Below, piece after piece: positions 2 to 14,576 of a DNA stretch of 33,913 nt; position 1 is the first letter of the stretch, and every line of letters starts with the position of its first letter. The stretch comes from a virus (Duplodnaviria > Heunggongvirae > Uroviricota > Caudoviricetes): the IMG/VR virus record IMGVR_UViG_3300013102_000003, positions 134,644-168,556 of that record. One strand, given 5' to 3'. The notes under the pieces are model-generated. The model saw nothing but the letters and a program-made list of their open reading frames with translations. It ran no database searches and was not told where the DNA came from. The position numbers and the translations under genes were made by a program.

Positions 2-3000
2 TCCTACGGAGGGTTCTACCTCACCGACGAGTCCTCCAAGAGTTGGTCTGACAAATACGCCAAGGAGCGTAACGGTGTCATGCACGGCTTCGCCATCGAC
101 AAGAACGCCCGAATCGATGACCGTGGAAGCGAGCAGATCGACCGCATCTCCGCAGAGGACCGTGCCAAAGCTGCCGAGACCTCCGATATCATCAAGGGTA
201 AGGACCTTCTCGGGCGTACCCAGTATGTTATCCTCAACAAGGATGTCGTCAAGGGTGTTGGTGAAACCAACATCAAGGAGGACAAGGCCTCTGAAAACGC
301 CCCAGACGCTCCCACGGCCTCAAAGCCTGAAGCAGCCCCAGAGTCTGCCCCTGAAGCACCTGAATCCGCTTTCCTCAACGGATACGACATTGACGCGGAC
401 TCCGAACTGGGTACTGTCGAGCGTGACGTGGACGGTCAGGACTTCACGATGATGAACACCAGCCGGGACCTGCTCAACGCACTTCCGGTTGGCTCTACCG
501 TTACCACACTCGACCCTGAAAAGATGGACGCCGGTCAGCCTGTCGTCAAGGCTGGCCCGAACACTTGGGGACGCTCTCGCTCACTGGGTGACCACACTTG
601 GGATATCTTTGCAGATAACCAGATGCTAGAGTATGGTGTACACACAGGTATCCGTATGCCTGACCACGCAGAGAACGACTTCACCCCTCAGGAGCTTGCG
701 GACATTAACAGGCAGGCCGAGAGGGAGCGTGCTGAGGAAGCGGCATCTGAAAAGCGCTACCAGCAGAGGCAGACAGAGCGCGAAGCCAAGCAGAACGCGA
801 CCCCTGTTGATGAAGCAACCCCTGAGGCAACTCCTGCCCCCACACAGGCACCGCTTGTCCGTGGCGAGCAGGGAGAGATCAAGCTGTCAGGTGTCCGCAA
901 GCAGACCAAGCGCGACGACAAGTCCACACAGCACGTCAAGACTCTTGACAAGCTTGAGGAAGGTGATAGAGTAAGCCACACGAACGCCCGTGGAGAGAAG
1001 TCTACCTACCAGAAGCACGCTGACGGTACTTGGGACGAGATTGACCCCAACGACGAGTTCCCTGAGGACAGCCCCATCCGTGAGGCCATCCCCGCATCGG
1101 AAATCGCTGACATTCACAAGCGTGGAGACCTCAAGGTCACCAAGGCTGGCGAAGAGGAACAGGTTGACGCTCCTGCACAGGCACCAGCACCGGAACAGGC
1201 TCCAGAAGCCGCTCCGGCACCTGACGCTGCCCCGGAAACGGACGCAACACCAGAAGCTGACGCCCCGGAAGAGGTAAAGTACTCCAGAATCCTCGCGCCG
1301 GATGTACGCCGTACGGTCAGCAACTACGCTAACGAGCATGGCGACGACGCTGGTTTCCGTGTTGTGAACGGCAGCACAATCGAGGTCACAGATCTCGATA
1401 AGGCTCAGCAGGCATTCAGGGACATGGTATCGGAACTCGATCAGCCCGGTACAAGCCGTGCAGCGAACATTAGCAGGAACCGCGTTCAGCGCGAGGCCCG
1501 TGCTATGCTTGTACGTTTGAACACCGAGATCGAGAACAGGGATCGTGACAATTCCAAGGCACAGCCTGTGAACGGTGATCCGGACTTCACTCCGATTGAC
1601 GGCAAGGTCACTGTACAGCCAGACGGTAGCCAGAAGTTCACATCTACCAAGACAAAGCGTGATGAGGCCAAGAAGGCTCAGGAAGAGGCTGGACAGGAAC
1701 CGTCAGACGTTCAGGATGCTGAGCTTGATGACAACGCGCCCGAGCAGGAGAAGGTTGACCCTATCTCCGATGAGCAGGCTGGGCGTGTCCTTGAGTCTCT
1801 GACCGCAGAGAACCCTCTTCCGGAGGGCATCGAGCGCCACGTTCCAGAGGCAGTTGAGGGTGAGGATTACGCTCCGACCCAGCAGCAGCAGGACGTTATT
1901 GACGCCGTTCTCGGCGGATTGAACACTCTTGTTCAGGCTAAGGCCGGTGCCGGTAAGACTTCCACGCTTCGTGCAATCGCACGCCGCTTGAAGCTCACCC
2001 GTCCGGATGCTAAGATTGGCTACATTGCGTTCAACAAGTCGGTTCAGCTTGAGGCCAACGGGTCCATGCCAAACAACACTGAGGCCCGTACAGGGCACTC
2101 TATTGCCATGGCATGGGCACAGGAGTGGATGCAGAAGCGTCTCGCTCCGAAAACTCTCCAGAACCCGACTGGGTCCCTTAGCCGTCCGTCTGACTGGGCC
2201 GATCACCTAGGCATCCACACCACTCTTGACAACAATGGCAAGGCGTTCGCTACGAACAGTCAGGCCATGGCGGTCAAGCGCACTCTGGACACCTACGCGT
2301 TCAGCGGTGATGACAATATTGGTGCCCACCACCTTCCGGAATCCGTCAAGGAGATGCCAGAGCACATTCAGGACGCCGTCCTAGACTTTGCTTCTGCCGC
2401 ATGGTTTGACATGAAGGATCGCAACGGTAAGCTTCGCATGACCCTTGACCAGATCCGCAAACAGTGGGCACTTTCCCGTCCGGACTTCTCCAAGCCCGGT
2501 TCTGGACTTTCCCGCCCTGTTAGTGTATTGTTCCTTGATGAGGCTCAGGACACACCTCCTGTTCTCGCCAAGGTCATTGCTGACCAGAAGAACGTCCAGA
2601 AGGTCATCGTTGGTGACGCGGATCAGGCTATTTACGGCTTCACCGGAGCAACGGACTACCTGTCCGAAGCTGAGGGTGATGTTGAGCTTCCGCTGAACAA
2701 GTCGTGGCGTTTCGGCCCTGCCGTTGCCGACATGGGTAACCGATTCCTTCAGATTGCAGAGTCTCCACAGCGTGTCGTTGGCGGCGGCGATTCCAAGATC
2801 GTTGAGAACATGCAGGATGCTGACGCTGTGCTTGTCCGCTCCAACGGTGGCATGCTTGGCGAGATCGGCAGTGAGCTTGAGCGCGGACGTGTCGTGGGCG
2901 TTTCCGAGAAGACCAAGGATGACCTGAAGTCTCTCATTGCGACTGCACGTTACCTCCGTGACGGTGGCCGCGCACCTCGCTCGCTGCATGAAGATCTTGC

Positions 3001-6000
3001 TGACTTCCACTCTTGGGGGGAATTCATGCAGGAAGTGGACAGGGGCGACGACCAGAACCTTGCCAAGATTGCGCGTATGATTGATACGTTCGGCCTTGAC
3101 AAAATGGATGAACTGATTGATAGTGTAGTAGCTACTGGCGGATCTGTGTTCAACGCCATCACCTTTGAGGACCACCCTACGGTCGGCCTCATTGCTCGCG
3201 GTGACACCTTCCCAGCTAGGACGTTCATGCGAGATGCCGGGTTCCGCTGGGTCAATGACCCTAGTGGAGCTATCATCCCGGCTGGCCGTAACAATGCCGG
3301 ACAGCGAGAGAAGGTTTGGGCTGCTGCGGGTACGCCTGCCGAGCGTCAGGCCAAGCTTGATCGTGCCAAGGAACTTGGCGCATCGACTGAGCCGGATGTT
3401 GTGATCTCGACCGCGCACAAGGCCAAGGGCCTTGAGTGGGATCGTGTCCGCATCGGTGATGACTTCTGGGCACCAAAGGTTGACCCGGATACCGGCGAAG
3501 TGGAGATGGTAAAGCCTGAAGAGCTTCGCCTGAACTACGTTGCCGTGACTCGTGCTGCCAAGGAACTTGATCTGGGTTCCCTCGCGTGGGTATTGGATCA
3601 CTCTGATGAGAACGGCGGGATCGTCCCGAGCGCCACTGAAAAGGACGTTACTCCTTCCCTCCAGTCGGGAGACGAGGACCGTACAAAGTCCCCTGTCAAG
3701 TCGGCTCCGGAAGAAGTTGCGCCTGAAGAGGCACCTGCTCTGGTAGAACCAGATGTGGCTCCGGAACCTGAAGTTGCACCTGAGCCGGAAAACCCGTACA
3801 ATGAGAACGGCCTCACAGACGTTGAGCAGTCTACACTAGACTACGCTAACCGTCGTCTGGACCGTGCCCGTCAGGGTAGCGACACCGCAAGCATCGATGA
3901 TCTGGAACGTGAAGTCAACAACATCATGGAACACGGGGAGCGCCGCAACGCTGGCGAGACCCTTCCTGAGTACGATCCTGAGCCAATCAGGGACGAAGCT
4001 GAGGAAGTTCCTGAGGTTGAAGACGCTCCGGCAACAACTGAACACATACCAATGGGTCGCCGTACCCGTCGTGACTACAGCGGTGTCATCCTCAAGGATG
4101 CCAACGGTGCTGAGCTTTCACACGGCGATATGATCGGTCACAGGACTCACGGACCAGTCCAGATCACTGGAATGACTCCGGCATCTGGCCGTGTCCAGTT
4201 CATCAACCCTAAGACCGGACACACCGGCTCTGTTGACACAAGCCGTGTAACCCGTATCGATGCTTCGGCTCCTGAGGCGGCTACACCTGAGACACCTTCG
4301 GCTGGTATTCCGGATGTTCCGGGTACCCTCTTCATTGATCCGGCAACGGGCAAGAAGGCGTTCATTGACAAGCATGGTAACATGGTTGTCAAGGGAGATC
4401 GTGTCGTTGACTCTAGGAACGGAAACGCTGGCGAAGTTGTCGGTGTTTATCGTGCTGCTGACGGTGGAGCATGGCCTGCCATCAAGTTTGATGGGGAGGC
4501 CGGAGGACCGCGCCGTGTCAAGGGTCACCTTGTTCACAAGGAAGGTTCGGAAGAAACTTCTCCTGCCCCTGAGGCTCCTGTTACACCTGAGGTAGCTCCG
4601 GCTCCTGAAGCTCCTAGCGCCCCTGAGGCTCCGAGTGCTCCGGAAGTACCGGAGACCGTTGTAGACGCCCCTGAGGCGGCTCCAGCGGATGCTCCGAGTG
4701 GCAGATCACTTACAGGCACGAGGACAGAAATCCACAATGCCTTGAATGCTGCTCCAATTGGATCGACAGTGCTCAACACCATGAATGGTAGAGTTCTGAC
4801 GAAGCTACAGGACAACGTCTGGGGAAGTGACGGCGTGGGAAGCCACACCAGCTTGGACCTTGCCCGTTCGGCATCTATCGCTCAGGTCCAGAACCCGTTC
4901 GAGATTACCCTTGCCGAGGCGGCACCTAGCGCTCCGGAGGTAACTCCGACTGTAGATGCTACACCGGCTGGGCCGTCCACGCCAGTATCTCCGCAAGGCC
5001 CAGTAAGTGTGCAGCTAGGCCAGAGTGAAAGCGAGAGGTTGGATGCCATCCTCAACGCACCAATCGGTTCGACCCTACGTGGAGCCAACTCCCTTAGAAC
5101 ATACACTAAGAGGGATGACGACGAGTGGTTCTCGGATACAGGTGTGACATCTGTACCGTGGACAAACTCAGAGATGGCTGGAATTTCGGACCCGACAAGT
5201 GCTCGTGGTGTCACAACGCTGACAACACCTACAGCACCCGACGCCCCCGTGGCACCTTCGCCTGAGACTGTGGCTCCGGTACGTCTTCAAGGCTTTACGG
5301 CTATCGCACCCGACACCGCACTCCCCGGAGACGTTGTTGGTCGTCGTGATGTGTTGTCAAATGCTCCGATTGGCACTAAGCTGGGCGGACCTAGTGGCAC
5401 TTTTATGGAGAAGGTCGGACCAGATGAGTGGCACAACGCGGCAATGGATCACCGATGGACCAGCCAAGATGTTGCACTTCTCTCCACTTCTGGAGGGTGG
5501 ACGCTTAATCCGTCTGGCGTTGCAACGCAGCCAGAGGGCACACTTCCGGCAGATCCCGCAGAGAGGCTAAGTTTCGTTGAGGGGCTTCACGAAGGATCTA
5601 CCCTCTCCAGAAATGGTCTGAAGTTTACCAAGATTGGGCCAAACCAATGGAAGTCTGACTTCACTGGCACCATTTACGGTGACAATGATATGGCTGATCT
5701 GGGAAGGGAGAACTACGGAAGCTGGAATGTCGTTGCCGCAGAGAAGGCAGTTGAGCCGGAAGGAATTCACCCCGGACTGCCGGATGGTTCATTCCTTCCA
5801 AACTCTGAGGGATCGACTACAGGACTACGTAGGGTTGGCGCTGACCGCTGGGAGATGATCCGCAACGGAGAATCAACCGGTCGATTCAGCAATGATGAGA
5901 CTGCACAGATGTTGATGGACATGAACGGCACGACAGTTCAGGCTCCACCTCCCGTAGCCTCTCCAAAGGTCGATTTTGGGCCAATGGATTTCGGTATATC

Positions 6001-6826
6001 TAACTTCCCCGGAGGTAAATCATTCGGTGATTGGATTCTCGAAAATCAGGGGGATTTCTCCAACCTGACCATTGACCAGAAGCAGGCGGTCAAGGATAGC
6101 TACAAGGCATTCATTGAGCACCTAAACACTAGACTGCCGGAAGGTGTCAGGGCGGAACAGAGCGGGTCCATCTCGTTCGGTTCCACTAACATGCGCCACT
6201 CCATGGCTTTCTACAAGGGCAATGTGCACCTTGGAAACGCTGACCGAGACTTTAACGCCAATTACTTCGATGCACGTACTGGCGCAAGAGTATCGCATGT
6301 ACACCACTCGCTCTACCAGATCTCCGATCAGGGTGGCGGAATTTCTTCGGCATTCCTGAAGGCTTCAAAGGAACTCTACAGGCAGATGGGTGTGGATCGA
6401 ATCACTATCCATGCAGCCCTTACGGTTGGCGGGTACGCTTGGGCCAGAGGTGGTTTTGACTTTGAGAACTTCAACGCCATGAAGCACGCCATCACATCTT
6501 GGAAGCTGAGAATGCCTACCCGACCGTTCCCCGGCCAGTCGCAGGCTGAGTTTAATGCTCTGAAGCAGAAGTTCGCTGAGTTGTCCGCAAGAGCTACAAT
6601 GCAGAACTACCGTGACGGAACGCACCCGACTCCGCGTGACTTTGCGGATATCGGTCGTCCAAGTGGTCGAACCACTAAGGACATGAACTGGTTCGGCAAG
6701 AAGATGCTCAAGGGCAGTAGCTGGATGGGTGAGTTCGTGTTGAACGCTGACGGAAAGCCGAACCCCTACTCCGTAGACGGTGCCCCGGTGACTGAGGTTG
6801 CGCAGGCAGCACCGAGTGGTGTATAG
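2..6826 (+). CDS. Giant polyvalent phage protein (5'-truncated, at least 2274 aa): ART-like segment, repeat domains, SF1 UvrD-like helicase, SH3-like modules, C-terminal GNAT-like domain
   Basis: The frame is open from base 2 (SYGGFYLTDESSKSWSDKYAKERNGV) into the listed ATG at 80, so the true start lies upstream of the window. Helicase motifs: I AGAGKT (~1943), II DEAQD (~2537), III VGDADQAIYGFTGA, IV LNKSWRF, V STAHKAKGLEWD (~3407), VI EELRLNYVAVTRA (~3518). Globular islands are separated by Pro/Ala/Glu linkers. Confidence 0.9.
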   Translation, partial: SYGGFYLTDESSKSWSDKYAKERNGVMHGFAIDKNARIDDRGSEQIDRISAEDRAKAAETSDIIKGKDLLGRTQYVILNKDVVKGVGETNIKEDKASENAPDAPTASKPEAAPESAPEAPESAFLNGYDIDADSELGTVERDVDGQDFTMMNTSRDLLNALPVGSTVTTLDPEKMDAGQPVVKAGPNTWGRSRSLGDHTWDIFADNQMLEYGVHTGIRMPDHAENDFTPQELADINRQAERERAEEAASEKRYQQRQTEREAKQNATPVDEATPEATPAPTQAPLVRGEQGEIKLSGVRKQTKRDDKSTQHVKTLDKLEEGDRVSHTNARGEKSTYQKHADGTWDEIDPNDEFPEDSPIREAIPASEIADIHKRGDLKVTKAGEEEQVDAPAQAPAPEQAPEAAPAPDAAPETDATPEADAPEEVKYSRILAPDVRRTVSNYANEHGDDAGFRVVNGSTIEVTDLDKAQQAFRDMVSELDQPGTSRAANISRNRVQREARAMLVRLNTEIENRDRDNSKAQPVNGDPDFTPIDGKVTVQPDGSQKFTSTKTKRDEAKKAQEEAGQEPSDVQDAELDDNAPEQEKVDPISDEQAGRVLESLTAENPLPEGIERHVPEAVEGEDYAPTQQQQDVIDAVLGGLNTLVQAKAGAGKTSTLRAIARRLKLTRPDAKIGYIAFNKSVQLEANGSMPNNTEARTGHSIAMAWAQEWMQKRLAPKTLQNPTGSLSRPSDWADHLGIHTTLDNNGKAFATNSQAMAVKRTLDTYAFSGDDNIGAHHLPESVKEMPEHIQDAVLDFASAAWFDMKDRNGKLRMTLDQIRKQWALSRPDFSKPGSGLSRPVSVLFLDEAQDTPPVLAKVIADQKNVQKVIVGDADQAIYGFTGATDYLSEAEGDVELPLNKSWRFGPAVADMGNRFLQIAESPQRVVGGGDSKIVENMQDADAVLVRSNGGMLGEIGSELERGRVVGVSEKTKDDLKSLIATARYLRDGGRAPRSLHEDLADFHSWGEFMQEVDRGDDQNLAKIARMIDTFGLDKMDELIDSVVATGGSVFNAITFEDHPTVGLIARGDTFPARTFMRDAGFRWVNDPSGAIIPAGRNNAGQREKVWAAAGTPAERQAKLDRAKELGASTEPDVVISTAHKAKGLEWDRVRIGDDFWAPKVDPDTGEVEMVKPEELRLNYVAVTRAAKELDLGSLAWVLDHSDENGGIVPSATEKDVTPSLQSGDEDRTKSPVKSAPEEVAPEEAPALVEPDVAPEPEVAPEPENPYNENGLTDVEQSTLDYANRRLDRARQGSDTASIDDLEREVNNIMEHGERRNAGETLPEYDPEPIRDEAEEVPEVEDAPATTEHIPMGRRTRRDYSGVILKDANGAELSHGDMIGHRTHGPVQITGMTPASGRVQFINPKTGHTGSVDTSRVTRIDASAPEAATPETPSAGIPDVPGTLFIDPATGKKAFIDKHGNMVVKGDRVVDSRNGNAGEVVGVYRAADGGAWPAIKFDGEAGGPRRVKGHLVHKEGSEETSPAPEAPVTPEVAPAPEAPSAPEAPSAPEVPETVVDAPEAAPADAPSGRSLTGTRTEIHNALNAAPIGSTVLNTMNGRVLTKLQDNVWGSDGVGSHTSLDLARSASIAQVQNPFEITLAEAAPSAPEVTPTVDATPAGPSTPVSPQGPVSVQLGQSESERLDAILNAPIGSTLRGANSLRTYTKRDDDEWFSDTGVTSVPWTNSEMAGISDPTSARGVTTLTTPTAPDAPVAPSPETVAPVRLQGFTAIAPDTALPGDVVGRRDVLSNAPIGTKLGGPSGTFMEKVGPDEWHNAAMDHRWTSQDVALLSTSGGWTLNPSGVATQPEGTLPADPAERLSFVEGLHEGSTLSRNGLKFTKIGPNQWKSDFTGTIYGDNDMADLGRENYGSWNVVAAEKAVEPEGIHPGLPDGSFLPNSEGSTTGLRRVGADRWEMIRNGESTGRFSNDETAQMLMDMNGTTVQAPPPVASPKVDFGPMDFGISNFPGGKSFGDWILENQGDFSNLTIDQKQAVKDSYKAFIEHLNTRLPEGVRAEQSGSISFGSTNMRHSMAFYKGNVHLGNADRDFNANYFDARTGARVSHVHHSLYQISDQGGGISSAFLKASKELYRQMGVDRITIHAALTVGGYAWARGGFDFENFNAMKHAITSWKLRMPTRPFPGQSQAEFNALKQKFAELSARATMQNYRDGTHPTPRDFADIGRPSGRTTKDMNWFGKKMLKGSSWMGEFVLNADGKPNPYSVDGAPVTEVAQAAPSGV
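1865..3600 (+). other. Superfamily 1 (UvrD/Rep-like) helicase domain within the giant protein
   Basis: Q-motif region PTQQQQDVI, Walker A AGAGKT, Ia YIAFNK, Walker B FLDEAQD, and motifs III-VI are all present in order without disruption. Confidence 0.93.
6200..6745 (+). other. GNAT-fold acetyltransferase-like domain at the C-terminus of the giant protein
   Basis: ISDQGGGISSAFLKASKELYRQMGVDRITIHAALTVGGYAWARGGFDF resembles GNAT motif A (Q/RxxGxG/A-like loop then helix), followed by the beta5 strand and a motif B ending in ...xGF. Confidence 0.65.
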
Positions 6827-7374: not shown

Positions 7375-7383
7375 ACACAAATG

Positions 7384-7420
7384 AGGACGCCCATTGCGAC
7401 AAGCGGTGGGCGTCCTTTGT
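7384..7420 (+). terminator. Intrinsic terminator-like hairpin
   Basis: AGGACGCCCATTGC-gacaa-GCGGTGGGCGTCCT forms a 14-bp stem with two G-U pairs, followed by TTGT, about 10 nt after the stop at 7374. Confidence 0.75.
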
Positions 7421-7428
7421 GGTATACT
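7420..7428 (+). promoter_or_regulatory. Extended -10 promoter (TGGTATACT)
   Basis: TGn-TATACT in AT-rich intergenic DNA directly after the terminator; the motif recurs in the window. Confidence 0.65.
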
Positions 7429-7514
7429 GTAGACTACCGATAAAATATGTTTAAGTAGGCTTGATGTCTGATATTACACCGTCCGCCTCTGACCTGTCCA
7501 TGGAAGGCGAAACT

Positions 7515-9905
7515 TTGGCTAACGATTACCACTGGCGCAGTACTAAAGCAAAGAAGCAACTCAGAGACCGTTTCGGGCGCTGGATCTCCCTAGGAGCCAA
7601 CGTGCGCTTCCGTGGCGACGGCGCAGAGCAGTCCGGTGTGGTTACCAGCGTCATCGACGGCAAGGCCTATGTCGATCAGAAGAACCTCGATGGTACGGTC
7701 ACACAGAAGATCATTGACCCGTCCGCCATCCGCGTTATCGCGTCGAAGGCAACCCTGCCACCGGACGGCAAGAAGATCCGTGACGAGGACAACAACTTCG
7801 CTGCTGCCCTGAAGACCCCTGAATTCCAGAACGCCCTCACAACGAACGGTGAGGCCGTGATTGAGCGTGCGGATGGCTATGCCCTCTCCGCAGAGTTGCA
7901 GGACGATGCACAGGGCGGCGAGAATGATGTCAAGGACGGAACTGAGCCGGAGCCTCACGAGGACAAGTCCACTGGCAACAATATCATGTACCAGCTTTTC
8001 GCGCCCGGTGGCCGAAGCCTTGGACAGTACGGACAGGCCGCAGTAGGTGACTTCGATGCCATGGTCTCGGAGGACCAGATCGGCCAGACCGCTGACACCA
8101 ACCCTACAGGCGGTGGAGAAGCTGCCCCTGCCGCTGTAGCCGCCTCTGTCTCCATCTCCGGAGAAGAGAAGCCGTACCGTGTCCCGGAGTCCGTCAAGAG
8201 CGACATCCAGTCCACGATTGCCAGCCTGTCCGTTGAGCTACCAGAGGCTGACCTAGCTGTGGCGACACGTCTTGCCAATGATTCTACCGTTTCCCTCTCA
8301 GATGTAGAATGGGTTCACGGGTTTTTCTCAGAACATGACCTAGATGAGAAAATCAGGGGCGGGTTCAAGGGCCGCAAGTGGGCCTCCAAGATTGTTGACT
8401 CCGGTGACGAAATTACCGCACCCGATGACATTGAGGTTGACACACACCCGAAGTACACCTTTGACGACGACACCTACGGGTACTTTGCTGTCGGCAGGGA
8501 TGCCGGGTCGAGCATTGTCAACAAGCTTCTCGCTGTAGACTATGAGACCGGTGAGGTCTACTCGTGGTCACCTGACGGGTTCTGTGCCATCCCGGACATG
8601 GACATGAAAGAAGTGGACGAACCACAGATCATCCCGATTGACGAGATGACGGCTGATGAGTTCGCCCACTGGCTGGACTCCGGCAGTGCCGAAGAGTTTG
8701 ATATTCTTGATACAAATCCTGAAGAGCGAAACCTGTTCACTCTGGCTGATGCGGAGATAGACTATGATGAGCTAGACCGATCATACTCTATCATTGCTGC
8801 TGCCGGTGACGGAGTGTATACCCCTGTTGAGCGTTCCCAGAATGCCAAAGTACAGCAGCGCGGCGCTGGCGGCAAGTTCGGTGAGACTCCGGACGCTGCC
8901 CCTGCCGTACCTGAGGGTGAAGAACCCAAGGTTCAGAAGGCTAGACTGCCTGTAGAGCTTCCCATCGTCGCTGACCCTGCCGCACGTATCGCTGAATGGC
9001 TCTCAACAGCCGCTGAAGCCCCCGTGGTGGCCGCAGGAGAGGCTTCAGGTACTCCCGAGTACACTGAGGAAGATCAGGCCGTAGAAGACGCTGCAACAGG
9101 CCCCACAGACGAGGCCCTGTACTTCGCCATTGTTGACGAGATCGACAAGTCGGCTGTACTCGATGCAATTGCCATTGTCAAGTCAAACGGACAGCCGTCT
9201 GCATTCATCCGTCAGGGTGGAGCATGGGTTGCGTCTCCGGATACACTCACACTGCTTCAGGGTGCTACCCCGCCGACTGTGGTCGAGCTTCCTGATCCTG
9301 CAACCGTCAAGACGGTTCTTGAGCAGATCGATGCCCACGACGCTGGAGGCGACACCACGCCTGACCCTGAGGAAGCAGCACTTCCCAAGCCCGGTGAGGT
9401 TCCGCTGGCAGCTTCAGGTTACGCACTGGCTGATGGGTCATACACTATCATTGATGTAGATGACCTAAAGGAAGCAGTTGTTGCATCCGCTGCAACCGCT
9501 GACATCTTCGTGAAGGCCCACATCCGCAAGCGTGCCCGTGCACTCAACCGTATGGATGTTGTTCCAGCGGAATGGCGCGAATTCTCGCTTGCAGAGATTG
9601 GCGAACTGACTGCCGAGCGCAATGCTTACGGCGAGTTTGGTGAAATCCTGACGGCGTCCGCTGGACCTAAGCACGGCCACGGCAACGCGGCACAGCTACA
9701 GGCCTACTGGACCACCGGAAAGGGCGCTCTCAAGATCCGCTGGGGTACCAAGGGTGATCTTACCAGAGCACACAAGCATTTGGCAAAGTACGTTGGACCG
9801 CAGCGCTCATGGGGCCTCGCCCAGAACTACCACAGGAGCCTCTTCGGAGTCTACAACCACACACACGATGTTGCAACCGGACAGTACGTTCCGAGAAGAA
9901 AGTAG
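7515..9905 (+). CDS. Modular head-region protein (about 796 aa), probable virion-associated polyprotein
   Basis: ORF 7461..9905. TTG 7515 is preferred (RBS GGAAGG at 7502-7507), giving MANDYHWRSTKAKKQLRDRFGRW. It contains an SH3-like segment, a YRVP...RLAN...GGxxGxxWA module, two related beta-rich modules, an ALADGSY...HIRKRARAL module (DUF6582-like) and a C-terminal YWTTGKGALKIRWGTKGD module. It lies immediately upstream of the capsid protease. Confidence 0.8.
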   Translation: MANDYHWRSTKAKKQLRDRFGRWISLGANVRFRGDGAEQSGVVTSVIDGKAYVDQKNLDGTVTQKIIDPSAIRVIASKATLPPDGKKIRDEDNNFAAALKTPEFQNALTTNGEAVIERADGYALSAELQDDAQGGENDVKDGTEPEPHEDKSTGNNIMYQLFAPGGRSLGQYGQAAVGDFDAMVSEDQIGQTADTNPTGGGEAAPAAVAASVSISGEEKPYRVPESVKSDIQSTIASLSVELPEADLAVATRLANDSTVSLSDVEWVHGFFSEHDLDEKIRGGFKGRKWASKIVDSGDEITAPDDIEVDTHPKYTFDDDTYGYFAVGRDAGSSIVNKLLAVDYETGEVYSWSPDGFCAIPDMDMKEVDEPQIIPIDEMTADEFAHWLDSGSAEEFDILDTNPEERNLFTLADAEIDYDELDRSYSIIAAAGDGVYTPVERSQNAKVQQRGAGGKFGETPDAAPAVPEGEEPKVQKARLPVELPIVADPAARIAEWLSTAAEAPVVAAGEASGTPEYTEEDQAVEDAATGPTDEALYFAIVDEIDKSAVLDAIAIVKSNGQPSAFIRQGGAWVASPDTLTLLQGATPPTVVELPDPATVKTVLEQIDAHDAGGDTTPDPEEAALPKPGEVPLAASGYALADGSYTIIDVDDLKEAVVASAATADIFVKAHIRKRARALNRMDVVPAEWREFSLAEIGELTAERNAYGEFGEILTASAGPKHGHGNAAQLQAYWTTGKGALKIRWGTKGDLTRAHKHLAKYVGPQRSWGLAQNYHRSLFGVYNHTHDVATGQYVPRRK

Positions 9906-9910
9906 TATCC

Positions 9911-11512
9911 ATGAAAATCATGCCAAACTTTGACGAGGAAATCGTCAAGTCGCTAGCCTTTGATGAAGCCATGGTTGCTTCCGCTGCTGTAGCGGCGTCA
10001 GAGTTCTCCAGCATCAACGAAATCGAAACCACGCTCTACACATTTGATGAAGAGCTTGGCCAGTACCGTGACGTTGACGGAAACGCACCCGTTGTTGCCG
10101 CAATCATTGCGTCTGCTGTTGTCCCCTCCGGTGGCCGCTTTATCATCCCTCTCGCTGTACCGGAAGAGGTTTCCTCCGGTGATGAACGTTCCTTTAAGAA
10201 AGACTCTATCACAACCCGTGATCTTCCGCTACCCCTAATGTGGCAGATCAAGACTGGTGCAGGTCACGAAGGATCTGTAGTCGTTGGGCGTATCGATTCC
10301 ATCGAACGCCTTGAGAACGGTCTTGGAAATGCACGCGGTGTATTTGATGTTGGACCCTATGGACGAGAAGCAGAGCGAATGGTTCGCGGTAAGTTCCTCC
10401 GTGGAGTTTCCGTTGACCTCGACAAATTTGAGGCAGAGGTTGAGGAAGAGCCTGAAAAAGAGCTATCCAAGAAGGATGACCTCCCTGCAAAGAAACAAAA
10501 CTCCATTAAGAACGAAAAGATTGTCGTTGACTCTGCTCGACTAATGGGTATCACCATCGTACCAAAACCAGCATTTCAGGAGTGCTACATTATGATTGAA
10601 GAAGAGCCAATTCTGGAGCTTGAAGAGCTTCCTCTCGCTGAGGGAATCTACGAGGAAATCCCAGAGGATTACGAATACCAGCTTGCGGCTCTTGCTGCAT
10701 CGGCTGCTCCAGTTGTCCCGCCCAAGTCGTGGTTCAAGGACCCCGGACTGTCACAGGCAACACCGCTGACCATCACAGATGACGGTAAGGTCTTTGGACA
10801 CATTGCCGCGTGGCAGACCTCCCACATTGGTATGCCCGGACGTGGCGTCAAGCCACCGCGCTCTGCATCCCAGTACGCGTACTTCCGAAACGGCGTTCTG
10901 CGCACGGATGAAGGTGACGTTCAGGTTGGGCAGCTAACCCTTGCTGGCGGGCACGCATCCCTACAGGCGTCTGCTGACGAAGCTATCAAACACTATGATG
11001 ACACGGCTTCTGCTGTGGCTGACGTGGTTGCTGGCGAAGACCAGTTCGGCATCTGGGTTTCGGGGTCTCTCCGTCCAGAGGTGACACCCTCACAGATCCG
11101 TGCGTTCCGTGCGTCCTCACCGTCCGGTGACTGGCGTCCGATCAATGGCCGTCTGGAGCTTGTAGCCGTCTGCCAAGTGAATGTACCGGGATTCCCGATT
11201 GCACGCGCTATTACGGCCTCCGGTGGCGTTCCGGGAGCACTCGTTGCTGCTGGTGCCGCGTACCTTGCTGAACTCCGTGAGGACAACAAGCTTTCTGAGC
11301 TTGATCGTAGACTATCTAAGATCGAAGCAACGGAGCTATCCTCCAAGGCTGAAGCGGCTCGCGGTCGCATGGGTGCTCTTGTCACTCAGCGCAACGCTGA
11401 ACTGTCTTCCAAGGCTGACGCCGCACGTGCCCGCATGATGTCTACTCGCCAGTCCGCTGACGCAGAGCTTGCGGCCAGCGTAGCACGTTTGCGAGCAAAG
11501 TTCAATAGCTAG
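9911..11512 (+). CDS. Capsid maturation protease (two protease-like halves)
   Basis: The listed start at 9809 overlaps the previous gene; ATG 9911 (or 9920) follows its stop. SGDERSF...PLPLMWQ...GHEGSVVVGRID...LRGVSVDLD matches HK97-type prohead protease His/Ser motifs of mycobacteriophage cluster-B-like phages. The second half reads PPxSWFxDP...GHIAAW...HYD...SGDWR...VNVPGFP. The gene precedes the capsid gene. Confidence 0.85.
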   Translation: MKIMPNFDEEIVKSLAFDEAMVASAAVAASEFSSINEIETTLYTFDEELGQYRDVDGNAPVVAAIIASAVVPSGGRFIIPLAVPEEVSSGDERSFKKDSITTRDLPLPLMWQIKTGAGHEGSVVVGRIDSIERLENGLGNARGVFDVGPYGREAERMVRGKFLRGVSVDLDKFEAEVEEEPEKELSKKDDLPAKKQNSIKNEKIVVDSARLMGITIVPKPAFQECYIMIEEEPILELEELPLAEGIYEEIPEDYEYQLAALAASAAPVVPPKSWFKDPGLSQATPLTITDDGKVFGHIAAWQTSHIGMPGRGVKPPRSASQYAYFRNGVLRTDEGDVQVGQLTLAGGHASLQASADEAIKHYDDTASAVADVVAGEDQFGIWVSGSLRPEVTPSQIRAFRASSPSGDWRPINGRLELVAVCQVNVPGFPIARAITASGGVPGALVAAGAAYLAELREDNKLSELDRRLSKIEATELSSKAEAARGRMGALVTQRNAELSSKADAARARMMSTRQSADAELAASVARLRAKFNS

Positions 11513-11517
11513 AGCTT

Positions 11518-11550
11518 AGGGCCTCCCGTTACACACGGGAGGCCCTTTCT
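11518..11550 (+). terminator. Intrinsic terminator hairpin
   Basis: AGGGCCTCCCGT-tacac-ACGGGAGGCCCT is a perfect 12-bp stem followed by TTCT, 6 nt after the protease stop. Confidence 0.85.
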
Positions 11551-11609
11551 CATTGTACGCCATTAAGCGTGCTCTGTCAAGCAAAACTTGCTGCACACCC
11601 ATTTTTTTA

Positions 11610-11618
11610 TGATATACT
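11610..11618 (+). promoter_or_regulatory. Extended -10 promoter for the capsid operon (TGATATACT)
   Basis: TGn-TATACT preceded by a T-tract, with a possible -35 TTGCTG at 11588-11593 (19-nt spacer), about 110 nt before the capsid start. Confidence 0.65.
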
Positions 11619-11728
11619 GGAGTCATACTTTAAGCGCGAAGTGTCTAGAACGCTCGCCCTTCTGCTGAATGTCACTAAAACACCCGATGGACATATTCGT
11701 CCACCTCTATAAATCTAAGGAGGGAACT

Positions 11729-13654
11729 GTGGATTCAATCCGTGAAAACCTTGATCGCCTAGCCGATCTGTCACCGGAAGAACTCTCAGCCCTACAGGAA
11801 AAGATTGTGGCCGAATTTGGTTCGCTTTCAGATTCCGTTGGAGACAATCCCACACGCGAAGTCGTAGATGCTATGAACGAATTGGCTGACGCTAACGATG
11901 TAGTCGTTAACGAGACAGACCGTCGTGTAGCTGAGACAGCCGAACTCGCATCCGCTGCTGAAGAAGCAATTTCCCGCATGACTGCTGGAGATGCCGAAGC
12001 TGAAGCAACAGATGTCGCAGAAGGCGAAGAGACCGGCTCAGAAGAAGAACTCGCAGCCCCTGACGCTCCAGAGGAAGAGGAAGAAGCACCCGCTGAAGCC
12101 CCTGCCGAAGGAACCGAAGAGGAAGAAGCTGGCGAGACTCCGGCAGAAGAAGACGAAGAGAAGAAGAAGGACCTAAAGCCCTTCTCCGCTGAGTCTGAGA
12201 CTGCTGCTGAAGCCGTAGTAGACGCTCCAGCCGAAGCTGAAGCATCTGTCGAAGAAGCACCAGAGGCTGAAAGCGCCCCTGAAACCCCTAATGAAGTTGT
12301 AGCAGAATTCGCTACAGAAGAGTCTAACACAGAAAGCCCGGTGGAAACAGTGACCGCCTCCACAACACCAGAAGAGCTTGCATTTGAAGCTCCCGCAGAG
12401 CTACGCCCTGCACCTAAGGCTGCTAAGGCCCCAATCGTAATTACTGCTGGTGCTGACCTTCCGGGCATCACAGCAGGCTCCGAGCTTTCCAGCATCTCTG
12501 ATGTTGCACAGGCTCTTCTTTCCCGCAAGCACGGCATGGGCCGCACTTCCGGTGGAGACGGCGAGCAGCACACCGTTGCACGCTTCGCAACTTCCTTCCC
12601 AGACAGCCGTATGCTCTTCAGCAACGATGTTGAAGGTAACCGCGCCAAGATCAACAACGTTGTCTCCCCTGAGGCCGTTGTTGCTGCCGGTGGCCTTACC
12701 GCTCCGGTTGACACCTCCTACGACATCTTCGAGCTTGGCGAGACTTCTGTCCGCCCAGTCCGTGACGCTCTCGCCGTATTCGGTGCAGATCGTGGTGGCC
12801 TCCGCTTCATGACCCCACCGCTGCTTACTGACCTGAACGGTGCAGTTTCCGTTTGGACCATGCAGGATGACATCGACGCCTCCACACCTGAAGGCCCGAA
12901 CCCGGTCAAGCCTTGCCTCCGCGTTGCAGCAGGCGTTGAAGTTACCGTCTACACCGACGCTATCCCGCTCTGCCTCACCTTCGGTAACCTTGGCGCACGC
13001 GCCTACCCGGAGCTTGTTGAGCGCCACACCCAGCTTGGAATGGTTCAGCACGCACGTTTCGCTGAGACCCGCCTGCTTACCCGCATCGGTGCCCTCTCCA
13101 CACAGGTTACAGCCGGTGCAGAGCTTGGCGCAGCACGCGACATCTTCGTCCAGATCGAACAGGCAGCTTCTGCTTACCGCAGCCGCTACCGTCTTGACCC
13201 GAAGTCCCCGCTTCGCGTTATCTTCCCTGAGTGGTTCAAGAATGCACTCCGTGCAGACCTGACCAAGCAGCTTCCGGGAGATGGCCGCGACGGTACCTTC
13301 AACCTTGGCGAGTCCGAGATCAACAAGTGGTTCACCACTCGTCAGATCAACGTTTCTTGGCACCTTGACGGCGAGACCGGCCAGATCTTCGGATCACAGG
13401 CTGATGGCGCTCTTCTCGGATTCCCGACCGACGTTATCTGGTACCTCTTCTCTGAGGGCACCTTCGTATTCCTTGATGGCGGAACACTGGACCTCGGACT
13501 TGTCCGCGACTCCACCCTGAACGGCACCAACGATTACAAGATCTTCCTCGAAACTTTCGAGGGCGTTGCCAAGGTCGGCGTAGAGTCCCTACGCGTCAAG
13601 TCCACCCTGAAGATCAAGGGTTCATCCTCCGCTACTACTGTAGTTGCAGGCTAG
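11729..13654 (+). CDS. Major capsid (hexamer) protein with N-terminal fused acidic scaffolding region
   Basis: GTG 11729 has a strong RBS AAGGAGG at 11717-11723. An N-terminal helical then Glu/Ala/Pro-rich region is followed by AVVAAGGLTAPVDTSYDIF...RGGLRF...KPCLRV...GNLGARAYPEL...LDLGLVRDSTLNGTNDYKIFLETFEG, characteristic of cluster-B/Patience-like actinophage major capsid proteins. Confidence 0.9.
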   Translation: MDSIRENLDRLADLSPEELSALQEKIVAEFGSLSDSVGDNPTREVVDAMNELADANDVVVNETDRRVAETAELASAAEEAISRMTAGDAEAEATDVAEGEETGSEEELAAPDAPEEEEEAPAEAPAEGTEEEEAGETPAEEDEEKKKDLKPFSAESETAAEAVVDAPAEAEASVEEAPEAESAPETPNEVVAEFATEESNTESPVETVTASTTPEELAFEAPAELRPAPKAAKAPIVITAGADLPGITAGSELSSISDVAQALLSRKHGMGRTSGGDGEQHTVARFATSFPDSRMLFSNDVEGNRAKINNVVSPEAVVAAGGLTAPVDTSYDIFELGETSVRPVRDALAVFGADRGGLRFMTPPLLTDLNGAVSVWTMQDDIDASTPEGPNPVKPCLRVAAGVEVTVYTDAIPLCLTFGNLGARAYPELVERHTQLGMVQHARFAETRLLTRIGALSTQVTAGAELGAARDIFVQIEQAASAYRSRYRLDPKSPLRVIFPEWFKNALRADLTKQLPGDGRDGTFNLGESEINKWFTTRQINVSWHLDGETGQIFGSQADGALLGFPTDVIWYLFSEGTFVFLDGGTLDLGLVRDSTLNGTNDYKIFLETFEGVAKVGVESLRVKSTLKIKGSSSATTVVAG

Positions 13655-13706: not shown

Positions 13707-14576
13707 ATGGCACGCAGTAACACCACCCTAGTCCCCACAGCGGGACTTGAGGTCGCCCCCTTCGGTATTCTGAGTCCAGCTACCACTACGTACAACGAGA
13801 GTGACAGCTTCTGGACTTCTGGGCTTACCTACGAAGATCTGGACGCCGGTGTAGTTGTTGTCAACGGATCGATCTACGGAGTCAGCCCTGCTGCATCCGT
13901 AACGGTTGTTGACAACAGCGCTTCTAAAGAACACTTCAAGACGTACTATCCTTTCGATGTCAAGGCATCCGTGAAGGTTTCCACCATGGGAACCAACCCG
14001 GCTGATATTGAAGCAAGCGCCAAGGCGGCGCTTGACATTGTGACCCAGAAGGCCGTTGAGACGGAATTCTGGAATGGCGATGTAGCAAAACTTCTTACCA
14101 CTGACAATGATAACAGATACCTCGCTTCGGCGCAATCTGTAGATGTGACCCCTACACCGGGAACAGCCGTCAAGGTTCGTTACGGTCTGGCGCTGTTGGA
14201 GCAGGCAATTGCCAACTCCCCAGTAGGCGCACAGGGACTTATTCACGCACCAAGAGATGTAGCTTCCACGCTACCCCTTGACAAGGATGGTACCACACTT
14301 CGAACCTCTCTGGGAACACCTGTAGTTGCAGGCGTTGGATACTCAAAGAAGGGTCCGACCGGAGCAGTAGCTGCCGCTGGCAAGGCTTGGATGTACGCAA
14401 CCGGGCCTGTCTCGGTTCGTCTCGGCCCCACCATTGTTACACCCGGAAACCTGAATCAGGCTGTCGATATTCGCGTCAACAACATTGAGTACTTCGTTGA
14501 CCGCTCAGCAGCCGTTACATGGTCCACCACCACGTCGTACGCAGTACTCGTTGATCTAACACTAGACTACGCATAA
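13707..14576 (+). CDS. Capsid pentamer-like / minor capsid protein
   Basis: RBS AAGGA. Directly follows the major capsid gene. LEQAIA...GLIHAP...LRTSLGTPVVAGVGY...WMYATGPV resembles the second HK97-fold capsid protein of this phage lineage. Confidence 0.7.
   Translation: MARSNTTLVPTAGLEVAPFGILSPATTTYNESDSFWTSGLTYEDLDAGVVVVNGSIYGVSPAASVTVVDNSASKEHFKTYYPFDVKASVKVSTMGTNPADIEASAKAALDIVTQKAVETEFWNGDVAKLLTTDNDNRYLASAQSVDVTPTPGTAVKVRYGLALLEQAIANSPVGAQGLIHAPRDVASTLPLDKDGTTLRTSLGTPVVAGVGYSKKGPTGAVAAAGKAWMYATGPVSVRLGPTIVTPGNLNQAVDIRVNNIEYFVDRSAAVTWSTTTSYAVLVDLTLDYA

Follow-up and report, generated by a model that had tools for sequence, protein, structure and literature searches.

The window, that is, the whole 33,913-nt stretch of DNA that was analysed, is the head-assembly module of an actinobacterial siphophage of ~170 kb, whose kin include the Arthrobacter phages Racecar, Mimi and Atuin. 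Three adjacent head genes, encoding a multi-module head protein, the protease for capsid maturation and the major capsid protein, share a five-residue motif (aliphatic-any-Ala-Ser/Ala-Gly/Ala) at the joints between modules, and the motif is found also in hundreds of related phages (Table 1). A terminator-like hairpin and extended -10 element upstream of the multi-module gene would mark the start of a transcription unit that comprises this gene and that of the protease. The multi-module product had been read as 796 aa, with a start at 7515, and the ORF listing gives 814 aa from a TTG at 7461; a start at the ATG at 7464, yielding 813 aa as in 96 homologues, is more likely. The AlphaFold model of this protein (mean pLDDT 72) has low-confidence linkers between its modules. 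None of 60 homologues matches a Pfam family, and the protein contains no MuF domain; its fold matches are weak, and module F matches phrog_6439.

The protease protein, for which 1436 homologues were found and 120 of them listed, opens with an N-terminal propeptide region, which is followed by an S78 domain and a second conserved domain, and closes with a coiled-coil tail. Of 44 homologues, 18 match PF04586 (best E-value 1.6e-5), the window's own protease scoring 0.13, short of the Pfam threshold. The putative catalytic His119 and Ser167 are 48 residues apart, compared with 49 for His65 and Ser114 of HK97 gp4. The second domain shows no similarity to the S78 half by hhalign and gives weak leads only in the ESM Atlas (Mu-like_Pro, S77 and S80); certain Gordonia phages have it without the S78 half, with matches spanning the second-domain half alone. 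Behind the helical N-terminal part of the capsid protein come an acidic stretch (36% Asp+Glu across aa 101-228), then a middle region (aa 229-339) and, last, the HK97 fold. Its model aligns to HK97-fold capsids with VIA-align Z scores of 8-9, and Foldseek finds phage capsids with E-values of 3.6e-5 and weaker. Structural alignments to mature capsids place the start of the N-arm at ~aa 315-335, a position that is approximate because the confidence of the capsid model is low (pLDDT 55).

Table 1. Features of the head genes and candidate processing sites (a slash marks the proposed scissile bond)
Feature	Position (nt)	Strand	Basis or remarks
Terminator-like hairpin, then extended -10 (TGGTATACT)	7383..7430	+	Sequence read directly; putative promoter/terminator function
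Multi-module head gene, 813 aa from ATG 7464	7464..9905	+	96 homologues; AlphaFold model
Modules of head gene (813-aa numbering)			A 26-208, B 234-447, C 454-520, D 535-632, E 652-718, F 739-810
Site S1, V-A-A/S-V	8136..8150	+	Within linker aa 209-233; weakest of five
Site S2, I-I-A/A-A	8790..8804	+	End of module B, just ahead of conserved basic peptide opening module C
Site S3, V-V-A/A-G	9024..9038	+	Start of linker C-D
Site S4, L-A-A/S-G	9405..9419	+	End of linker ahead of module E
Site S5, L-T-A/S-A	9648..9662	+	Linker ahead of module F
Capsid maturation protease protein, 533 aa from ATG 9911	9911..11512	+	phrog_859, phrog_18402, phrog_21470; alignment of 15 loci
Protease site a, M-V-A/S-A	9971..9985	+	Near N-terminus; kept in close relatives only, P1 Ala 65%
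Protease site b, I-I-A/S-A	10103..10117	+	Directly ahead of S78 domain
Peptidase_S78 (HK97 gp4-type) domain	10118..10615	+	PF04586 matches in homologues
Putative catalytic His119	10265-10267	+	Invariant in 44 homologues
Putative catalytic Ser167	10409-10411	+	Invariant in 44 homologues
Protease site c, L-A-A/S-A	10691..10705	+	Between S78 and second domain, behind acidic variable linker
Second conserved domain, aa 268-437	10712..11221	+	phrog_18402, phrog_29860
Protease sites d (I-T-A/S-G) and e (L-V-A/A-G)	11210..11254	+	Past second domain, ahead of C-terminal coiled coil
Major capsid protein with fused scaffold region, 661 aa	11669..13654	+	phrog_777; structural matches
Capsid site 1, V-T-A/S-T	12350..12364	+	End of acidic stretch
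Capsid site 2, I-T-A/G-A	12440..12454	+	Ile 100%, Thr 95%, Ala 100%, Gly 98% (120 homologues)
Capsid site 3, V-V-A/A-G	12677..12691	+	Expected N-arm start of HK97 fold

The strict form of the motif is [VIL]-x-A-[AS]-[GA]; a relaxed core, [VILM]-[VTIALM]-A-[SAG]-[GASTN], was drawn up post hoc, with the data already seen. All 13 instances named in the sequence-only reading lie in frame at the nucleotide positions given for them, and nine of these fit the motif as it had been written, AVAASV, MVASA, VTAS and ITAG fitting the relaxed core only. Relative to composition shuffles, the strict motif is enriched in both the 814-aa ORF (six matches, 0.8 expected; p<0.0005) and the protease (five, 0.6 expected; p=0.0005); the capsid gene has one strict match only. 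The relaxed core gives six matches per gene in all three, against 0.6-0.85 expected. Across the genome, the strict pattern occurs 59 times versus 25.8 by shuffles, and the motif background is already some 1.5-2-fold above the shuffle expectation (strict and relaxed scans); the 813-aa gene and the protease are the strongest strict-pattern outliers among 225 ORFs. The codons used vary between sites, and the signal is therefore one of protein, not DNA, sequence. In the homologue alignments, the P1 Ala is kept in 95-100% of sequences at nine of the 13 sites.

Within the 813-aa protein, all five sites fall within, or at the edge of, low-pLDDT linkers, which bears out the placement of the motif at domain boundaries, albeit that the linker-placement test on its own is weak (p=0.07). 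Four of the five are kept, in the relaxed form, in 58-59 of 60 homologues, whereas the neighbouring linkers vary; the comparison of motif with flanking linker proposed in the sequence-only reading thus comes out in favour of the motif. S1 is weaker: 18 of 60 homologues have a strict match close by and 47 the relaxed form, and in distant homologues an inserted domain has a new motif copy before it. At S2, which abuts the low-pLDDT segment 449-454, two overlapping strict matches at 8790 represent a single site, with Ile at P3 in 88%, Ala at P1 in 95%, and either Ala (51%) or Asp (41%) at P1'. The strict motif is found at S3 in 57 of 60 homologues (P1 Ala 96%), at S4 in 53, and at S5 in 50 (relaxed form, 59); the linker 3' of S3 is hypervariable, and where S4 is absent, a new copy lies a few residues upstream. 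More generally, loss of a site is accompanied by a new copy close by, and inserted or duplicated modules carry their own. In 137 diverse proteins in which module F is internal, the motif lies no more than 25 aa upstream in 63%, compared with 7.5% of control windows. The further strict match VVASA at aa 673 lies within a predicted helix; it is unlikely to be a site.

In the protease, the sites surround the S78 and second domains in the alignment, as had been claimed for its two halves. Conservation of sites a and b is no more than moderate; around site b the sequence varies, yet most loci have a copy of the motif there, the fused ORF of locus L018 among them. At site c, all 44 homologues have Ala at P1, Ser at P1' and Ala at P2', and there are equivalents in Rizwana, Jefe, ReqiPine5, Phlyer, Saguaro and Cece. 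The P1 Ala of site d is likewise 100% conserved, as are P4 and P2 to P3' of site e, where P3 is Leu in 95%. In 120 capsid homologues, the V-T-A/S of site 1 is conserved to 96% at P3, 98% at P2, 100% at P1 and 97% at P1', and eight distant phages have an equivalent behind the acidic stretch. Site 3 sits, as anticipated, at the expected start of the N-arm, with P1, P2' and P3' 100% and P1' 99% conserved, and its equivalent in eight distant phages reads [LIV]-x-A/A-G-G-W. The portal, too, has a motif site near its N-terminus, and nine of 10 portals, taken from three host genera, keep it there. A matrix with homologue sites S2-S5 as its sole training set was scanned across the 225 ORFs of the 168-kb genome, and the top four heptamers outside the training gene were protease site d (the best), protease site b (joint second), portal aa 31-37 and capsid site 3.

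Distant phages of Microbacterium, Mycobacterium, Rhodococcus and Arthrobacter show the pattern again. In six distant phages, there are 20 matches in protease genes versus 5.4 expected, 12 versus 3.9 in capsid genes and 10 versus 8.3 in other genes. The head genes of HK97 and L5 are without it, HK97 gp3, gp4 and gp5 containing zero copies. In loci L018-L020, a 1584-aa ORF joins the modules of the 813-aa gene to the protease, with the motif at the module junctions in L018, and gp70 of Cece (1548 aa), also modules plus protease, has 12 strict matches versus 1.5 expected, several at equivalent junctions. Such joining of the modules to the protease as a single ORF in related phages, the motif standing at every junction, was counted toward the polyprotein reading.

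Taken from sequence, the data support that reading. We consider it probable (roughly 0.7) that the motif sites are cleavage sites of the prohead protease, with an assemblin-like Ala/Ser or Ala/Ala specificity, and that the gene specifies a head polyprotein. On this proposal, [VILM]-x-Ala followed by [Ser/Ala/Gly]-[Gly/Ala] would be the recognition site of the phage's own S78-bearing capsid-maturation protease, which would, on the model of herpesvirus assemblin, cut after the Ala. In the procapsid, self-cleavage at sites a-e would detach the protease from its N-terminal region, second domain and coiled-coil tail; the enzyme would also divide the scaffold region that is fused to the capsid protein into pieces, releasing the HK97-fold part at V-V-A/A-G-G; the portal would probably be trimmed by ~34 residues. 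Four to five linker cuts would turn the 813-aa product into five or six small proteins of ~8-24 kDa, both numbers being possible given the weakness of S1, and the gene would therefore encode a head polyprotein. We infer cleavage at the motif, the identity of the cut bond, which domain of the protease protein acts and the location of the products. If the motif does mark protease cuts, one could predict from sequence which mature head proteins this group of phages makes.

The alternatives differ in what they make of this pattern. It is unlikely, although the least so of these, that the motif is an uncleaved short linear motif, conserved as a docking strand (for scaffold, capsid interior or protease) or as an N-terminal domain cap. 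A role in the fold would fit its continuation into A-G-G-x-D-R-N before module F and A-G-G-L/W, such as A-G-G-W-C-A-P, in the capsid N-arm, and at these two places the motif may belong to the folded domain instead of being a cut site. However, the motif stands ahead of at least six unrelated modules, as well as behind the second domain of the protease and the acidic stretch of the capsid protein; a hypervariable linker often comes after it; and it recurs near the N-terminus even of portals that are otherwise unalignable. Since its contexts are so varied, a single docking role is less economical than one protease specificity. Slightly more doubtful still is a restriction of cleavage to the classical substrates, that is, to protease autoprocessing and removal of the capsid scaffold, with the 813-aa protein bearing look-alike sites and remaining intact, or forming no part of the virion or prohead. 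The lack of a Pfam family and the weak fold matches would be in keeping with this, but its sites are conserved as well as those of the protease and capsid, its gene probably shares a transcription unit with the protease, and Cece and L018-L020 hold its modules and the protease in one polypeptide.

Cutting by a host enzyme, such as a signal-peptidase-like activity, which reads small residues at -1 and -3 (the A-x-A rule), is very improbable: P1 Ala and a small or aliphatic P3 do resemble that rule, but the sites have no preceding hydrophobic signal segments, and the motif brackets the domains of the protease itself and tracks this protease lineage, being missing from HK97 and L5. Chance, or a by-product of composition, was tested and rejected. 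The three head proteins are 13% Ala and the genome-wide pattern runs ~2-fold above shuffles; nevertheless, neither the tape measure (14% Ala; one strict match, 2.3 expected) nor the giant helicase (two, 1.35 expected) has an excess over composition shuffles, and the matrix scan, being out of sample, argues the same way, as do the replication in distant phages and the motif's conservation relative to variable flanks. The tape measure, suggested beforehand as the Ala-rich control, being negative, Ala-richness does not explain the motif.

Proteolytic processing at the motif would have counterparts in known systems. The head proteases of T4 and the giant phages belong to families S77 and S80, unlike the S78 protease here, and that of T4 cuts at L/I-x-E. 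In T4, phiKZ, 201phi2-1 and SPN3US (gp21, gp175, gp245), a single head protease acts on numerous head proteins through cuts at a short motif; it cleaves long propeptides at multiple positions, strips N-terminal propeptides from the portal and the capsid protein, and shortens itself at the C-terminus (PMC10052503). The proposed likeness lies in the one protease, short motif and many head substrates. Those enzymes cut after Glu (A-x-E in SPN3US; PMC10052503), whereas P1 is Ala here, and their substrates shed propeptides, whereas one gene product here would give five or six modules.

S78 proteases are regarded as relatives of assemblin; between assemblin and the protease here, no relationship is detectable in sequence. 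The assemblin sites YLQA-T and VQA-S (PMC4498786) share with the motif an aliphatic P3, an Ala at P1 and Ser/Thr at P1'. In both, self-cleavage would release the protease from a C-terminal scaffold-like tail (here proposed), but assemblin has two or a few sites, as opposed to about fourteen over four proteins. HK97 gp4, the Peptidase_S78 archetype, has in common with the protease the S78 domain and its His/Ser pair at the same spacing, and HK97 has the same gene order (portal, protease, capsid) and a scaffold joined to the capsid protein, the gp5 delta domain, which its protease removes; HK97 does not use the motif, however, and gp4 is without the additional conserved domain and the long extensions that the protease here carries.

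Literature searches found no paper reporting such a cleavage motif, and none published for the actinophage protease/MuF-like fusions, and a 2022 preprint describes the delta-domain cleavage site as unpredictable. Actinophage head functions fused in one ORF are presumed to be processed (PMC7302621). The same two-domain protease, which occurs in 860 phage records, is found in actinophage genes annotated as 'capsid maturation protease and MuF-like fusion protein'; unlike these fusions, the 813-aa protein is without a MuF domain and is encoded by a separate gene. The protease/MuF-like fusion and protease-scaffold-capsid genes of actinophages carry the same motif.

The recurrent motif occurs well above expectation in the head genes of this genome. 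All 13 instances reported by the sequence-only reading were recovered where it had placed them; its treatment of them as a single motif holds in a looser form, as some fall outside the strict pattern, [VIL]-x-A-[AS]-[GA], and are taken in by a relaxed core, [VILM]-[VTIALM]-A-[SAG]-[GASTN]. The strict form is found six times in the 814-aa ORF form of the 813-aa gene (0.8 expected) and five times in the protease (0.6 expected), and these two genes are the top outliers among the 225 ORFs of the genome, across which it occurs at about twice the shuffle expectation. The relaxed core, which was picked after the data had been seen, has six matches in each of the 813-aa gene, the protease and the capsid gene, with 0.6-0.85 expected in each case, and no other ORF of the genome is enriched in it. 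Additionally, a pattern (M3) drawn from only the four clean sites of the 813-aa protein matches four protease sites (0.19 expected). Richness in Ala does not account for these counts: the tape measure, with 14% Ala, has one strict match versus 2.3 expected, and the giant helicase has two (1.35 expected). A signal at the DNA level was ruled out: codons vary from site to site and, therefore, the signal lies at the level of the protein. The relaxed core is absent from the 3124 residues of the giant helicase (2.2 expected; lower-tail p ~0.09, not significant), which would fit a packaged cargo having to escape the protease.

Coordinates of the features discussed (window positions unless a contig is named)
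Feature	Position	Strand	Length
Portal gene (outside the window)	contig 130441-132090		
Giant helicase gene	2-6826 within the window (full ORF from contig 132095)		3124 aa
Multi-module head gene (modules A-F, sites S1-S5)	7464-9905	+	813 aa
Basic peptide, start of 813-aa protein	7536-7590		
Basic peptide, start of module C after S2	8820-8880		
Protease gene (sites a-e)	9911-11512	+	533 aa
Second domain of protease	10712-11221		
Capsid gene (sites 1-3)	11669-13654	+	661 aa
phrog_779 gene, 3' of capsid gene	13707-14576		289 aa
ORF overrunning the contig end	25895-33913		2673 aa
Giant upstream ORF of related contig L016	L016:1235-7153		

The start at 7515 previously proposed for the multi-module head gene gives way to ATG 7464, which is favoured by homologues; a hairpin and an extended -10 lie directly 5' of the gene. 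We aligned 60 of the 96 homologues of the 813-aa protein (34-91% identity). At S2 (end of module B, before C), S3 (between C and D), S4 (before E) and S5 (before F), the relaxed form is kept in 58-59 of the 60, whereas the linker-side flanks have column identities of 10-40%; the motif is thus conserved relative to its linker. The strict form is present in 31-57 of the 60 (57 for S3, 53 for S4 and 50 for S5); at S2, I-I-A is kept in >80%, followed by Ala or Asp, and S1 is weakly conserved. Homologues that lack S4 have a replacement copy a few residues upstream, and in distant homologues an inserted domain or a second copy of module E comes with additional motif copies at the new junctions. Across all 13 sites, Ala at P1, the residue before the presumed cut, is found in 95-100% of homologues at nine.

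The 813-aa protein, as modelled by AlphaFold (mean pLDDT 72), has six modules joined by low-pLDDT linkers, and all five sites fall within or at the edge of these linkers, as expected from their earlier assignment to domain boundaries; a binomial test of linker placement alone is marginal (p=0.07), and one additional strict match falls in a helix. We infer that the five junctions carry a conserved protease recognition site; cutting after Ala would give pieces of ~24, 24, 8, 13, 9 and 9 kDa. None of modules A-F belongs to a Pfam family, and none of the 60 homologues matches the Phage_Mu_F domain (PF04233) at E<=0.01. Fold searches of the model against PDB, BFVD and Atlas assigned no function: the sole leads are an SH3/Tudor-like barrel for module A and a weak resemblance to capsid-maturation-protease and MuF-fusion clusters, the shape neighbours that lie in clusters of MuF-protease fusions being weak (TM ~0.2). 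Module F is found in 781 protein clusters, in many different positions, and also as a free-standing protein of 70-90 aa; where it is embedded (n=137), the motif lies just upstream in 63%, versus 7.5% of control windows. In the related contig L016, the giant upstream ORF has an N-terminal domain that resembles module A (aa 25-100 in the 813-aa numbering), the L016 homologue of the 813-aa protein is without it, and the module has thus moved between neighbouring head genes. A basic peptide, A-K-x-Q-x-R-x-x-x-G-(K/R)-(F/W), is found at the start of the 813-aa protein and again at the start of module C, as well as at the N-terminus of the giant helicase and in the fused ORF of metagenomic locus L018; it may serve as a signal for head targeting.

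The protease is the next gene (stop 9905, start 9911, the ATG favoured by homologues) and, in this genome, not part of the same polypeptide. Its N-terminal half is an S78 domain: PF04586 is matched by 18 of 44 homologues (54-88% identical; best E 1.6e-5), one homologue has a precomputed PF04586 match, and the window's own protein gives E 0.13 and 12.9 bits (cut-off 21). The putative catalytic residues, His119 and Ser167, are invariant in the 44 homologues and stand 48 residues apart; those of HK97 gp4, His65 and Ser114, are 49 residues apart, in a similar G-x-S-V context. Sites c and e are near-invariant, P1 of site d is Ala in all 44 homologues, and a and b are variable. The sites do bracket both halves, as had been proposed, with b and c around the S78 domain, and c and d/e around the second domain; a coiled-coil tail follows the second domain and sites d/e. 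This layout of site-bracketed domains and tail would be analogous to that of the assemblin precursor. The second domain is a separate conserved domain, which many Gordonia phages carry without the S78 half, annotated as capsid maturation protease, virion structural protein or RNA ligase. A tandem duplication of S78 was rejected, as hhalign found no similarity between the two halves (probability 0.3%). A predicted complex of the S3 linker segment and aa 70-255, the S78 domain, scored 0.00 ('no answer'), which speaks neither for nor against binding, and sequence searches of solved structures with the protease, the capsid protein and the capsid profile gave no match.

In the capsid protein, which also matches phrog_777, sites 1-3 have Ala at P1 in 100% of 120 homologues. 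A low-confidence model of aa 211-661 (pLDDT 55) aligns with HK97 and other capsids over model residues ~160-438 (VIA-align Z 8.6-9.0; Foldseek E from 3.6e-5), leaving ~336 residues ahead of the HK97 fold. Because the structural alignments begin at residue ~160 of this model, equivalent to residue 34-57 of mature capsid chains and 142 of HK97, the N-arm would start at ~aa 315-335; site 3 (aa 337-341) fits this position, and the earlier placing of the motif at the start of the capsid fold is upheld at the confidence of the model. Sites 1 and 2 lie within the scaffold region, site 1 at the end of an acidic stretch. Short homologues of 431-434 aa, whose first residue is the Val codon of site 1, were set aside as probable gene-calling artefacts, because GTG was likely taken as the start after breaks in the acidic repeat.

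A site matrix was built from the homologue sites S2-S5, with the window's own sequence excluded, and the whole genome was scanned with it. Apart from the training gene, the four top-scoring heptamers are protease d, protease b, aa 31-37 of the portal and capsid site 3; the protease, portal and capsid protein together make up <4% of the proteome. The portal match, P-I-T-A↓S-A-A (arrow, presumed cut), lies ~34 residues from the N-terminus. Of 10 portals from phages of Arthrobacter, Microbacterium and Mycobacterium, whose N-termini cannot otherwise be aligned, nine have a counterpart inside the first 20-55 residues; a similar motif is present in Racecar, Rizwana, Jefe, PG1, Phlyer, Saguaro and Blab, and Atuin has Ser at P1. 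The motif predicts that a propeptide would be removed from the portal.

The same association is seen in distant phages and in fused genes. In Cece, gp70 (1548 aa), in which modules like those of the 813-aa protein are fused to the protease, has 12 strict motifs versus 1.5 expected, and Blab gp21 has seven versus 1.2; the genes neighbouring these two have no excess. In three metagenomic loci (L018-L020), the protease, the modules and a tail resembling a scaffold are all parts of one 1584-aa ORF, every junction of which has the motif. In Rizwana, Jefe, ReqiPine5, PG1, Phlyer and Saguaro, there are 20 matches in the protease genes (5.4 expected), 12 in the capsid genes (3.9 expected) and 10 in other genes (8.3 expected). 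The positions that recur are the N-arm, the segment behind the acidic stretch and, in the protease, the joint of its two halves and the segment following the second. The motif is absent from the head genes of HK97 and L5, which served as negative controls.

Proteolytic maturation of phage heads is well known. To our knowledge, the cleavage sites have been mapped in few phages only, all cut after Glu. Head processing at multiple sites has been established in T4 and in phages of the phiKZ group, where P1 is Glu (PMC10052503). Processing of the T4/phiKZ/SPN3US type uses L/I-x-E or A-x-E, whereas P1 here is Ala; the assemblin sites YLQA-T and VQA-S (PMC4498786) are the analogy by which the cut bond would be placed after Ala. 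The simplest account would be that one specificity, that of the protease, serves for cutting the portal, the polyprotein, the capsid scaffold and the protease itself; against it, some sites run on into conserved residues and might be part of the folds. The products of the 813-aa protein may be internal or ejected, as the sequence-only reading had it, the indications being its gene position, the fusions to the protease and the basic peptide shared with the giant helicase. More broadly, we favour slightly (probability about 0.55) the reading that an assemblin-like specificity, [LIVM]-x-Ala↓[Ser/Ala]-[Gly/Ala], is common to a lineage of proteases with S78 and second domains, spanning at least 860 sequenced phages of Mycobacterium, Gordonia, Microbacterium, Arthrobacter and Rhodococcus, and that these proteases use it on MuF-like or other cargo polyproteins, on the portal and the capsid scaffold, and on themselves; the odd head fusions would then be true polyproteins, and all mature head-protein termini in these phages would be predictable from sequence. 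Actinophage fused head genes have been described as probably processed (PMC7302621), and one survey (2022 preprint) considered delta-domain cleavage sites not to be predictable; we found no report in the literature of the motif, or of cleavage sites in these phages. If the motif is a cleavage site, it would provide a sequence rule for the mature termini of capsid, portal and protease in hundreds of phages, explain many fused head genes as polyproteins, identify small head-associated proteins, freed from a single precursor, as a new class, and place phage S78 proteases in functional parallel with herpesvirus assemblin.

The window is the final 33.9 kb of a 168.5-kb contig, the assembly of which is incomplete or permuted at position 33913, because the 2673-aa ORF overruns the end. 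With the relaxed core, this ORF has seven matches versus 3.9 expected, which is not significant; the strict motif is also found seven times, versus 2.6-2.7 expected (p ~0.01-0.02). The head proteins are 58-59% identical to those of the Arthrobacter phages Racecar, Mimi, Atuin and Talia1610 (194 kb), and the gene order is the same, being annotated in those phages as portal, giant 'DNA helicase', small gene(s), 800-aa hypothetical protein, capsid maturation protease and major capsid hexamer protein. The phrog_779 gene occupies the position that in Jefe and Phlyer is annotated as 'major capsid pentamer protein', and it probably encodes the penton protein.
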